From: Escherichia coli
GTDB taxonomy: Bacteria > Pseudomonadota > Gammaproteobacteria > Enterobacterales > Enterobacteriaceae
Length of the DNA stretch: 64,000 nt
Assembly: GCF_050920415.1 (NCBI RefSeq)
Contig: NZ_CP169309.1
Strand: one strand, 5' to 3'
The notes under the pieces were generated by a model that worked only from the letters and a program-made list of their open reading frames with translations, had not been told where the DNA came from and made no database searches. The translations under genes and the position numbers were made by a program. Positions 55,465 to 60,442 of this stretch are shown in pieces; position 1 is the stretch's first letter, and each line of letters starts with the position of its first letter.

Positions 55465-58400
55465 TTATTCCGGGCGTGGCTTCAGCGGGAAGCGGCGGCG
55501 TACCAACACAAAGAACAGCGGCACGAAGTAAATAGCCAGAATCGTGGCCGAAATCATCCCGCCCATTACGCCAGTACCCACCGCATGCTGGCCACCGGAA
55601 CCGGCCCCTGTGCTGGTTGCCATTGGCAATACGCCGAAGATAAAGGCCAGAGAGGTCATCAGAATCGGACGTAAACGCTGACGGCAGGCGTGGAGCGTCG
55701 CTTCAAACAGGTCGTGGCCTTTTTGGTTCATCTCGTTAGCAAACTCGACGATAAGGATGGCGTTTTTCGCCGATAAACCAATCACCGTTAACAGGCCTAC
55801 CTGGAAGTAAACGTCGTTTTCCAGCCCGCGCAGCCATGTTGCCAGCAGCGCGCCGATAACGCCCAGCGGCACGACCAGCATCACCGAGAACGGCACCGAC
55901 CAGCTTTCATACAGCGCCGCCAGACACAGGAATACCACCAGCAATGAAATGGCATACAGCGCCGGAGCCTGCGCGCCGGAGAGTCGCTCCTGATACGACA
56001 TCGCCGTCCATTCCAAACCAAAGCCGCTTGGCAACTGCTTCACTAACGATTCCATAATATCCATTGCCGTACCGGTGCTGACCCCCGGCGCGGCTTCCCC
56101 GACAATCTCTACCGCTGAATAACCGTTATAGCGTTCCAGACGCGGCGAGCCTGTTTCCCAGCGTGAGGTCGCGAAAGCAGAGAAGGGGACCATGCCACCA
56201 TCTTTATTTCGTACATACCAGAGATTGATGTCATCTGGCAGCATGCGATATGGCGCAGCTGCCTGCACATAGACTTTCTTCACGCGACCGCGATCCATAA
56301 AGTCATTCACATAGCTCGAACCCCACGCGGTTTGCAGCGTGTCGTTAATATCGTCGATAGCAACGCCCAGCGCCTGAGCTTTACGCTGATCGATATCAAT
56401 CTGCAACTGCGGACTGTCGTCGAGGCCGTTATGGCGTACACGGGTTAACTCCGGATTTTCCGCCGCCAGAGCCAGCAACTGGTTACGTGCTGCCATCAGC
56501 GCATCGTGACCCGCACCAGCGTGGTCCTGCAACTCCATATCAAAACCCGCAGAACTGCCAAGGCCACTAATTGCTGGCGGGCTGCTGGCGATAACGCGAG
56601 CTTCTTTAATCTTATTAAATTCCTTCGTTGCACGTTCGATAATGGCAAACGAGGTGCCGGTCTTACTGTCGCGTTCGCTCCAGTCTTTCAGGCGGATAAA
56701 CATTCGCGCCACGTTTTGCCCGTTACCCCCAGGGCCAGAACCAACGGTGGCAAACACTGACATGATGTTGTCTTTTTCATGGGTGAAGTAATATTTCTCG
56801 ATTTGCTCAACGACTTTCAGGGTCTGTTGTTGGGTTGAACCGCTGGGCAACTGTACCGAGGTAGTAAACATGCCACGGTCTTCCAGCGGCAAGAACGACG
56901 TCGGCAAACGCAGGAACAGGAACACCATGCCGCCAAGCAGCAGGACATAAATCACAATCCAGCGCAGGCTACGGTGGAGAATTTTTGCTACCCCTTTTTC
57001 GTAGCGTTCGGCGTTGCGGTTAAACATCTGGTTAAACCAGGCAAAAAAGCCTTTTTGCCCGTGATGCTCACCTTTTTTCAGTGGCTTAAGTAGCGTGGCG
57101 CACAGAGCCGGAGTGAGGATCATCGCTACCAGTACTGACAGCACCATCGCCGCAACAATGGTAATAGAGAACTGGCGATAGATAGCTCCGGTGGTGCCGC
57201 CGAAGAAGGCCATTGGCACAAATACCGCCGACAGCACCATCGCAATCCCGACCAGTGCTCCCTGGATCTGCCCCATCGATTTACGTGTGGCTTCGCGAGG
57301 AGTGAGTCCTTCCTCACTCATAATACGTTCGACGTTTTCCACCACCACGATGGCGTCATCCACCAGCAGACCGATCGCCAGCACCATCGCGAACATGGTT
57401 AAGGTGTTGACGCTGTAACCGAAGGCGTAAAGTACGGAGAAGGTTCCCATCAACACCACCGGCACGGCGATAGTTGGTATCAGCGTGGCACGGAAGTTTT
57501 GCAAGAACAGATACATAACGAGGAAAACCAGGGCGATAGCTTCCAGCAGCGTTTTCACCACGTCTTCAATGGAGGCTTTAACAAATGAGGTGGTTTCATA
57601 TGCCACCTTGTATTCCAGTCCATGTGGGAAGTACTGCGCCAGTTCGTCGAGACGATTGAGTACCAGCTCCGCTGTTGCCATTTCGTTCGCGCCGGAGGCC
57701 AGTTTTACCCCCAGCCCGGAGGCTGGCTTACCGTTGAAGCGGCTGAGATAATCGTATTTCTCTGCCCCCATTTCGACGGTGGCGACATCGCCCAGCCTTA
57801 CTTCTGAGCCGTCCTGATTCACCCGTAAGGTGATATCGCGGAACTGTTCTGGTGTTTGCAGCAGTGACTGGGCGTTAATGGTGGCGTTGAGCGCCTGCTT
57901 ATCGACGGAAGGCGTACCACCAAGTTGCCCAACCGCAATCTGCGCGTTCTGTGACTCAATGGCATCAGTGACATCTTTAGCCGTCATCTGAAAACTGTTG
58001 AGTTTCGCCGGGTCCAGCCAGATACGCATTGAATATTGCGAACCATAGGCATCGATATCCCCGACGCCATTCACGCGGCTTAATGGGTCCTGAATATTAC
58101 TGGCAACGTAATCGGCAATATCCTGCTTATCCATCGAACCATCGGTAGAGACGAAGGCAATGGTAAGAATGTTGGTATCGCCGGTTTTACGCACCGTCAC
58201 GCCCTGATTTTGCACCGCCTGCGGCAACTTTCGCATGGCTGATTGCAGCTGGTTTTGTACTTGCTGCACTGCTTCGTCCGGATCGGTGCCCGCTTTAAAA
58301 CTTAAGGTGACAGATGCCTGACCGGTGCCACTGCTTTGAGACGACATATACATGATATTATCGAGGCCGGTCATATTTTGCTCGATAACCTGGGTCACGG

Positions 58401-58578
58401 TGTTTTCCAGCGTCTGAGCCGATGCGCCGGGGTAGTTAGCGGTTACTCGCACGTTAGGCGGTGCAAGATCCGGGTATTGTTCAACGGGCAATGAGAAAAT
58501 CGCCAGGGTTCCTGTCAGACACAACAGGATTGCCAGCACCCAGGCAAAAATGGGGCGATCAATAAAGAAATTCGCCAT
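55465..58578 (-). CDS. acrD: RND-family aminoglycoside/multidrug efflux pump
   Basis: 1037 aa; [41 protein letters not shown]... typical AcrB/AcrD N-terminus. Confidence 0.95.
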
Positions 58579-58646
58579 TAAAAGAGGACCTCGTGTTTCT
58601 GCGTATTGTTGTTGGCATGCCTTGCTTCACTGTAGCGGCAAGGTAC

Positions 58647-58666
58647 GGACCAATCGTGGAGAAAAA
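58647..58666 (-). promoter_or_regulatory. Putative BaeR binding site upstream of acrD (minus strand TTTTTCTCCACGATTGGTCC)
   Basis: Close match to the BaeR box consensus TTTTTCTCCATDATTGGC as recalled; 70-90 nt upstream of the acrD start. Confidence 0.5.
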
Positions 58667-58741
58667 AAGGAGTTAATGTAAATTATCATGCCCTTTTATA
58701 CTGAACCTTAAGTGCAAGTATTCTTTGGTAAGTAGGTGGCA

Positions 58742-60442
58742 TTACATTAGCTGGCTTTCCTCACCCTCCGCAGAGCGAAAGCTAATACTCACTAACGTGC
58801 CGCCACCGGAAGGTTGTGAAAAAGTCAGCGTTCCACCCAGTCGTTCCGCGCGTTCGCGCATAATATTCAGACCATAGTGACCTTCGGGTTCTTTCGGTTC
58901 TCCGATGCCAATCCCGTTATCACGGATATAGACTGTGTGATTGCCGTCCGGCGCGGTGACGCAACTAACGGCTATTTCGCTGGCGTTGGCGTGCTTCATC
59001 GCATTGAGTACCGCTTCGCGAATAATTTGCAACAAATGCACCTGCATTTGCGCATCCAGCGCCAGTGTTGGCAGACGGCAGTCGAGAGTCAGTTTTGCGC
59101 TGGTTTGATTTTGTAACGTATCCAGCATTTCCCGCAACGCGGAGGGAAGATCCGCTTGCTGCAGCGTCAGGCGGAACGTGGTCAACAGCTCGCGTAACTG
59201 TCGATAAGCATCATTCAATGCCTGGGAGAAATCGGCCATGATATTTTGTGCGGTGGCGTTATCTTCCGGTATCGAACGTTTAAGTAACGTCAACTGGATA
59301 CGTAAGTAAGAAAGCACCTGGGCCAGCGAATCATGTAATTCCCGTGCGATGGTGGCACGTTCTTCCATCAACAGTAACTGCTGAAAATGCTTCTGCGCCT
59401 GATTAAAGTACAAACCGCGCCCCAGCATCGACGAAACGCTGTTAAGCAGCGGTTCTGATGATGACACGTGGCTATTTTGCCAGTGCAGTTCGCCGTAAAC
59501 CGTCTCTTGCATCGTTACCGGTAAAATCTGCATCGGCAATTCGGGGTTTGGTTTCCCTTCACTAATCCGCCAGTTTTCACCGACATTCAACTCCAGATAT
59601 TCAGCCGCTTCATTGTCGCGAACAATCTGCAAAATATGGCGGAAACAATGCACATCTATCTGGCTGGTGTTCAGCGCCTGCGAACACTGATACAACACCT
59701 CCAGGCGACGCTTGGCCTCGTGGAGATCACGGGTTTTTTCTTCTACTGAAGCTTCCAGCGAACGATACAATTTATGCAGCTCGCTCGACATCTGGTTAAA
59801 GGTTTTGGCCAACAGTCCCAGCTCATTGGGCAGACTGGTATCCAGCGGCGGCGAATCGAACTGGCCGTGTTCAATACGCTGACTGGCGGTAACCAGCTGA
59901 TTCAGCGGGGCAACCACCTGATGGCGTATGCGGCGCAGAGTAAAAAAGACCAGCGTGAAAATACCGATGCCGCCAGCCAGGGAGATCGCCACCACCAGCA
60001 GCATTTTGCGTTCGGCGTAGTGCTGTAAAGCCAGCACGAACAGGTCTATCTGATTAACATAATTATTAATATTGGCCTGATACCACGGCAAATCGCCCTT
60101 GCTGAGCCGATTATTCATCTCCAGCCAGTTGGCATTCAGATGCGCATAGCGGGTTTTTACTGCCTCTGGCACATACCAGACGTTGAGATTGGTTAACACC
60201 GGTGAGTGCAGTGCCTGTTGGAACAGCTGGCGATGCGCATTGAGTTGTGGACTGCCGCTTTGCAAGTCGTAGCCCAGGCGGTAACTCTGCATACGCAACG
60301 ATCCGGCAATATTGATAGCCTCAGCGTCGCGCAAACTGCTCGCCAGAGTTAGCAGTGCGATACCCGTGGAAAGAATCGACAGCAGCACAATGTAAAAAAA
60401 GGCCCGGGCCAGACTGGCCGAGACGGGGCGTTTAACAATCAC
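58742..60442 (-). CDS. narQ: Nitrate/nitrite sensor histidine kinase
   Basis: 566 aa from GTG at 60442 (IVKRPVSASLARAFFYIVLL...); HAMP and HisKA_3/HATPase regions; ORF track is extended 5 codons. Confidence 0.95.
   Translation of the reverse strand: MIVKRPVSASLARAFFYIVLLSILSTGIALLTLASSLRDAEAINIAGSLRMQSYRLGYDLQSGSPQLNAHRQLFQQALHSPVLTNLNVWYVPEAVKTRYAHLNANWLEMNNRLSKGDLPWYQANINNYVNQIDLFVLALQHYAERKMLLVVAISLAGGIGIFTLVFFTLRRIRHQVVAPLNQLVTASQRIEHGQFDSPPLDTSLPNELGLLAKTFNQMSSELHKLYRSLEASVEEKTRDLHEAKRRLEVLYQCSQALNTSQIDVHCFRHILQIVRDNEAAEYLELNVGENWRISEGKPNPELPMQILPVTMQETVYGELHWQNSHVSSSEPLLNSVSSMLGRGLYFNQAQKHFQQLLLMEERATIARELHDSLAQVLSYLRIQLTLLKRSIPEDNATAQNIMADFSQALNDAYRQLRELLTTFRLTLQQADLPSALREMLDTLQNQTSAKLTLDCRLPTLALDAQMQVHLLQIIREAVLNAMKHANASEIAVSCVTAPDGNHTVYIRDNGIGIGEPKEPEGHYGLNIMRERAERLGGTLTFSQPSGGGTLVSISFRSAEGEESQLM

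Follow-up and report, generated by a model that had tools for sequence, protein, structure and literature searches.

A probable BaeR operator at the acrD promoter of a minority Escherichia coli lineage, orthologous to the K-12 site

The Escherichia coli sequence analysed here comes from a minority lineage of the species. Its narQ-acrD spacer very probably holds the operator through which BaeR would control acrD, at the position of the K-12 orthologue of that operator, and BaeR would bind there as a dimer and activate transcription in a class II arrangement. The orthologous site has already been reported in K-12 and the feature is therefore already known; the finding is correct but ordinary, being the known acrD BaeR site with one base change. 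The features concerned, in the order in which acrD would be transcribed, are listed below with their positions in the window, that is, the whole 64-kb stretch of DNA that was analysed.

58742..60442, minus strand: narQ coding sequence, 566 amino acids, GTG start (NF008184); the upstream neighbour of acrD, in the same orientation
58674..58691, minus strand: conserved upstream element GCATGATAATTTACATTA, which holds an invariant TTTACA (58682-58677)
58663..58672, minus strand: proposed distal BaeR half-site CTCCTTTTTT, with its CTCC exactly 11 bp ahead of the proximal one
58649..58666, minus strand: 18-bp BaeR box of the published type, TTTTTCTCCACGATTGGT, matching TTTTTCTCCATDATTGGC at 16/18 positions
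58652..58661, minus strand: proposed proximal BaeR half-site CTCCACGATT; the conserved block ends at 58652/58651
58629..58634, minus strand: putative -10 hexamer TACAGT, following a conserved TTGCCGC (58641-58635)
58588..58592, minus strand: acrD Shine-Dalgarno sequence GAGGT, invariant across 34 species
55465..58578, minus strand: acrD coding sequence, 1037 amino acids, RND multidrug efflux permease (NCBIfam equivalog NF007842)

The acrD product scored 2262 bits on the NF007842 profile (cut-off 1854), and the RefSeq annotation of identical E. coli records places narQ and acrD at these two open reading frames. In the 163-bp spacer between them, 71 nt ahead of the acrD start codon, lies a 20-mer which a preliminary description of this DNA had likened to the BaeR consensus; it is exactly the reverse complement of 58647-58666, TTTTTCTCCACGATTGGTCC. 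The comparison was right. The BaeR consensus of Nishino 2005, as quoted in PMC3915751 and PMC3799227, is 5'-TTTTTCTCCATDATTGGC-3', and the first 18 bases of the 20-mer (58649-58666) depart from it by two mismatches, T11C and C18T. The bounds given to the 20-mer hold for those 18 bases; its final CC (58648-58647) lies outside the consensus and is unconserved. A scan against the consensus, as the description had recommended, was carried out as a mismatch search and found this box as the sole site with three or fewer mismatches to TTTTTCTCCATDATTGGC on either strand of the 64-kb window. Counted from the acrD ATG, the box occupies -88 to -71, as it does in K-12. A second published motif, TCTNCANAA (Yamamoto 2008), has a CTNCA core in common with the first, according to PMC3799227; TCTCCACGA includes CTCCA and agrees with TCTNCANAA at six of the seven specified positions.

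Comparison with known BaeR sites, which had also been suggested, showed the box to be orthologous by position to the BaeR site at K-12 acrD. The K-12 box, TTTTTCTCCACGATTGGC (NC_000913.3, about 2587507-2587524), matches the consensus at 17/18 positions and is identical to the window box except for its final base, with the same offset of -88 to -71. When the spacer was aligned to K-12 MG1655, eight of the 163 positions differed, none of them within 58650-58729, an 80-bp run that includes the first 17 bases of the box; the -10-like hexamer is likewise identical. The last base of the 18-mer, at 58649, is T in the window and C in K-12, and the adjacent 58648 is C in the window and T in K-12. We note that 58650-58729 shows no substitution against K-12 whereas the sequence around it, in the spacer and in the coding regions, diverges by about 5%, and that conservation across species accounts for 58651-58691 only, such that the K-12 identity at 58692-58729 may be due to chance. 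The K-12 boxes of mdtA (TTTTTCTCCCTTATTGGC) and spy (TTTTTCTCCATAATTGGC) were recovered by the same pattern search; the Nishino 2005 consensus was derived from these boxes. Together with the window box they share TTTTTCTCC...ATTGG, and all three stand upstream of core BaeR regulon genes. The three K-12 sites (acrD, mdtA and spy) all end in GGC, whereas the window site ends in GGT. Distance to the start codon also varies among the three boxes, at 71 nt for acrD and 54 and 139 nt for the other two.

The window belongs to a small lineage. Over the regions compared (30000-54000 and 58400-58900) it was 100% identical, through 24 kb and 501 bp, to E. coli MFDS1022581 (NZ_CP169399.1); over the 24 kb, a further 17 complete genomes were 98.8-99.6% identical and the rest at most 97.8%. 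At the narQ-acrD junction, genomes outside this 18-genome lineage were 90-95% identical. Of 5426 complete E. coli genomes, 18 have the GGT allele of the box, all of them in the lineage with at least 98.8% identity. This frequency is also based on other searches, besides a 66-bp megablast query that returned only the 18 genomes with the identical allele and for which low-complexity masking of a T-run is suspected of hiding others. The K-12 promoter region was at least 99% identical in 5357 records. The regulator is retained: baeR was found in 5422 of the 5426 E. coli genomes, and MFDS1022581 carries mdtABCD-baeSR with baeS and baeR annotated, a BaeR identical to that of K-12 at 238 of 240 residues (differing at 214 and 217) and an mdtA box identical to the K-12 mdtA box.

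Regulation of acrD by BaeR has been described repeatedly. Four BaeR binding sites have been reported in E. coli, among them that of acrD (PMC2731931), and control of acrD and mdtABC lies primarily with BaeR, its effect being enhanced by CpxR (PMC4107485). An acrD promoter–lux fusion responded to indole only when BaeS and BaeR were supplied (PMC4780735), and a BaeS/BaeR-dependent indole response of the acrD promoter is also described in PMC4107485 and PMC10052836. In Erwinia amylovora, the acrD promoter was shifted by BaeR in an electrophoretic mobility assay (PMC3915751). The preliminary description had proposed that acrD is under envelope-stress control here, and this is supported by the K-12 orthology, this literature, the presence of baeSR and the invariance of the box core described below.

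To follow the site across species, loci were retrieved with a degenerate DNA pattern for 13 N-terminal residues of AcrD, with one genome per species; the search was anchored on codons because retrieval with the box itself would have selected for the box. At least 120 loci were obtained, and the 82 with a product at least 73% identical to the N-terminus of the window AcrD were kept. Among the loci listed, TCTCCA[CT]G occurred within 420 nt upstream in 75 of the 82 AcrD-like Enterobacterales loci, 74 of the 75 core-bearing promoters had CT[CT]C ahead of the core CTCC by exactly 11 bp, a [A/T]TTTACA-like heptamer preceded these motifs at a constant distance in almost all 75, and TA[ACG]AGT followed exactly 20 nt past the core TCTCCACG in 74 of 75. 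These species are phylogenetically related and the counts are accordingly non-independent. The resulting module has a constant order and fixed internal spacing: TTTACA comes first, CTCC-N7-CTCC second, with 11 bp from one start to the next, and TAnAGT last. How far the module stands from the ATG is variable, again among the loci listed, from about -88 to -92 in Enterobacteriaceae through -128 in most Serratia, about -157 in Erwinia and -162 in Yersinia up to -300 in Erwinia persicina.

In an alignment of 34 Enterobacteriaceae species, a block of high information extends from 58691 to 58651 with largely unconserved flanks on either side. The core TCTCCACG (58662-58655) varies little or not at all, and the last three bases of the 18-mer are weakly conserved, with C in 20, T in 12, A in one and G in one at 58649. 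Conservation is also high at TTGCCGC-TAnAGT-G (58641-58628) and at the Shine-Dalgarno sequence GAGGT (58592-58588). These comparisons show strong purifying selection on the core of the box throughout Enterobacterales. As 58649 is poorly conserved, lies outside the core and often carries T, the C-to-T change of the window is probably neutral. The conserved unit is displaced upstream of the 20-mer first described: the 3' GGTCC of the 20-mer is unconserved, whereas a second CTCC and the TTTACA upstream of it are conserved. At 58673, minus strand, the base before the distal CTCC is A (ACTCC) in the window and in K-12 and T (TCTCC) in the other 33 of 34 sequences; the E. coli representative SCPM-O-B-8794 also has T.

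An exact TCTCCA[CT]G within 420 nt was missing at four loci, L032 (Yersinia artesiana), L056 (Y. thracica), L110 (Superficieibacter) and L018, the last of which carries TATCCACG instead. In the lineages of these core-less acrD orthologues, control by BaeR may have been lost or have drifted. The core is also missing at L057, L106 and L111, but these three loci are uninformative because they have only 50-182 nt of upstream sequence. L091 (Serratia marcescens) and L092 and L118 (Candidatus Symbiopectobacterium) have the full module and the AcrD codons with a product about 25% identical to AcrD; a frameshift in acrD, its decay into a pseudogene or the presence of a second paralogue may account for them.

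A simple scan of 58400-58900 found no sigma-70 -35/-10 pair and no recognisable -35, which we read as an activator-dependent promoter and not as absence of a promoter. BaeR belongs to the OmpR/PhoB family (PDB search: 4B09 and relatives), members of which bind direct repeats head-to-tail. The CTCC motifs at 58672-58669 and 58661-58658 are in direct orientation with 11 bp from start to start, within the 10–11 bp register of direct-repeat operators of this type. We propose that phosphorylated BaeR, a winged-helix protein, would bind as a head-to-tail dimer to two 10-bp half-sites of the CTCC type separated by a one-base gap, at 58672-58663 and 58661-58652; the conserved block stops where the second half-site would end. 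If TACAGT serves as the -10 and transcription begins at the predicted start around 58622, the two half-sites would cover about -50 to -30. The gap from the repeat core to TAnAGT is fixed at 20 nt with no -35 hexamer, and BaeR bound to the repeat may replace the missing -35 and recruit sigma-70 RNA polymerase in a class II, pho-box-like manner. Envelope stress (indole, tungstate, copper or zinc) would then induce acrD through BaeS and BaeR, and it can be speculated that CpxR assists at the adjacent TTTACA, about -60 to -55. The pho box of PhoB is a class II OmpR/PhoB-family activator site in place of a -35. It resembles the layout envisaged for acrD in having a tandem direct repeat beside a -10 without a -35; its sequence differs from the acrD repeat, and the acrD geometry in this comparison rests on the predicted start.

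The model of two half-sites was inferred from the conserved CTCC pair and by analogy with the operators of AdeR and DzrR. In Acinetobacter baumannii, the AdeR operator of adeABC is AAGTGTGGAG-N-AAGTGTGGAG, or CTCCACACTT-N-CTCCACACTT on the other strand, and its crystal structure with DNA is available (PMC5766154). It shares with the acrD site a 10-N1-10 direct repeat, a CTCCAC start, a place upstream of an RND pump gene and an OmpR/PhoB-family regulator, and the proximal half-site CTCCACGATT matches the AdeR half-site at eight of ten positions; the distal half-site here, CTCCTTTTTT, is degenerate, unlike that of the AdeR operator. In a PDB search with BaeR, AdeR was one of many OmpR/PhoB-family relatives, and as it is a relative at the level of the family the analogy is limited to the way the operator works; no BaeR–DNA structure was found. 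The DzrR box of desAB in Dickeya and Burkholderia consists of two CTCCAT direct repeats with a DNase I footprint (PMC10052836), and is comparable in its CTCCA-type repeats, its 11-bp register, its RND pump and its link to an envelope stress response. DzrR is unlike BaeR in being another regulator, reported to be independent of phosphorylation, with other target genes. Within the BaeR regulon, a second CTCC lies 11 bp upstream in the window and 10 bp upstream at mdtA, and at spy the next TCTCC is 22 bp upstream; because of the mdtA and spy spacings, the direct-repeat dimer model does not hold uniformly for all sites of the regulon. The mdtA promoter also has a TTTACA-like stretch, TTTCATAATTCCTCC, upstream of its box.

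An alternative to be considered is that the conserved block is mainly the operator of another factor, CpxR or some other regulator, and that BaeR acts indirectly on acrD. This was the conclusion that the authors of a ChIP-exo study reached on the regulation of acrD by BaeR, having found BaeR peaks at spy and mdtA and none at acrD in MG1655 under ethanol stress (PMC7657598). The most conserved stretch does reach upstream of the BaeR box, where GCATGATAATTTACATTA, and TTTACA above all, is conserved as strongly as the BaeR core across Enterobacterales; the candidates for this element are a CpxR contact (a half-site) or an UP-like element. It contains TTTAC (58682-58678), the reverse of the CpxR half-site GTAAA, and CpxR is a reported co-regulator of acrD. 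That is, however, a single conserved half-site: with up to two mismatches, the CpxR box GTAAA-N5-GTAAA occurred 63 times in the window (48 expected) and not once within 58579-58741, and a full CpxR box in the spacer was rejected on this basis. The invariant core TCTCCACG is moreover the part common to the mdtA and spy BaeR boxes and to the CTNCA core, CpxR is reported to affect acrD in a BaeR-dependent way (PMC2731931 and PMC4107485), and BaeR shifted the Erwinia promoter in vitro. We consider indirect control through another factor's operator unlikely.

Two further explanations carry far less weight. One is that the block has a role at the level of RNA, as a narQ terminator, a structure in the 5'-UTR or a small RNA, or else contains a plus-strand mini-ORF. 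acrD does lie downstream of narQ with both genes in one orientation, and on the plus strand a strong Shine-Dalgarno-like AAGGAG (58667-58672) is followed after 3 nt by a start-stop ATGTAA (58676-58681); this mini-ORF was dismissed, as its GGAG motifs are the complements of the CTCC half-sites. The spacer had no Rfam match at E ≤ 1 and no terminator-like hairpin was found in it, its folding was no better than that of shuffled sequences (z = +0.80), and its conservation tracks the fixed DNA spacing to the -10-like hexamer and not base pairing, all of which makes an RNA-level role very improbable. The other is chance resemblance without function in a T-rich intergenic spacer, since the motif is itself T-rich and low-complexity spacers often give partial matches. 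With three or fewer mismatches, 0.11 sites were expected from shuffles and 11 of 100 shuffles contained a match. At the two mismatches actually observed, however, the analytic expectation was 0.0067 per 64-kb window and there were no matches across 300 windows simulated with a Markov-1 model; the site also has its K-12 orthologue and is invariant over dozens of genera while its flanks vary. These statistics together with the conservation lead us to exclude chance, to which we would give hardly any credence.

Returning to a BaeR operator at acrD, the footprint suggests that the constrained operator is shifted upstream of the quoted 18-mer and held at a fixed spacing from a conserved putative -10. 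It is tempting, if doubtful, to go further and regard the constrained unit as a three-element array, TTTACA-CTCC-CTCCACG, with a register of 10–11 bp and a gap of 20 nt to the -10, and with a CpxR-type half-site fused to the BaeR repeat. If true, such an array would provide a structural reason why CpxR enhances acrD only with BaeR, and the textbook BaeR consensus would be mis-registered by about 3-6 bp, because its 3' GGC is unconserved.

As to what this means for the organism, a divergent E. coli lineage appears, from its sequence, to keep BaeSR control of the AcrD aminoglycoside/beta-lactam efflux pump, which is expected and adds little to what is known of this regulon. The modest addition is the footprint, which marks the constrained bases of the acrD promoter, namely the two CTCC motifs, TTTACA and the fixed spacing to TAnAGT. 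Given that the 3' end of the 18-bp consensus is unconserved, this footprint could improve the position-weight matrices used for BaeR regulon prediction.
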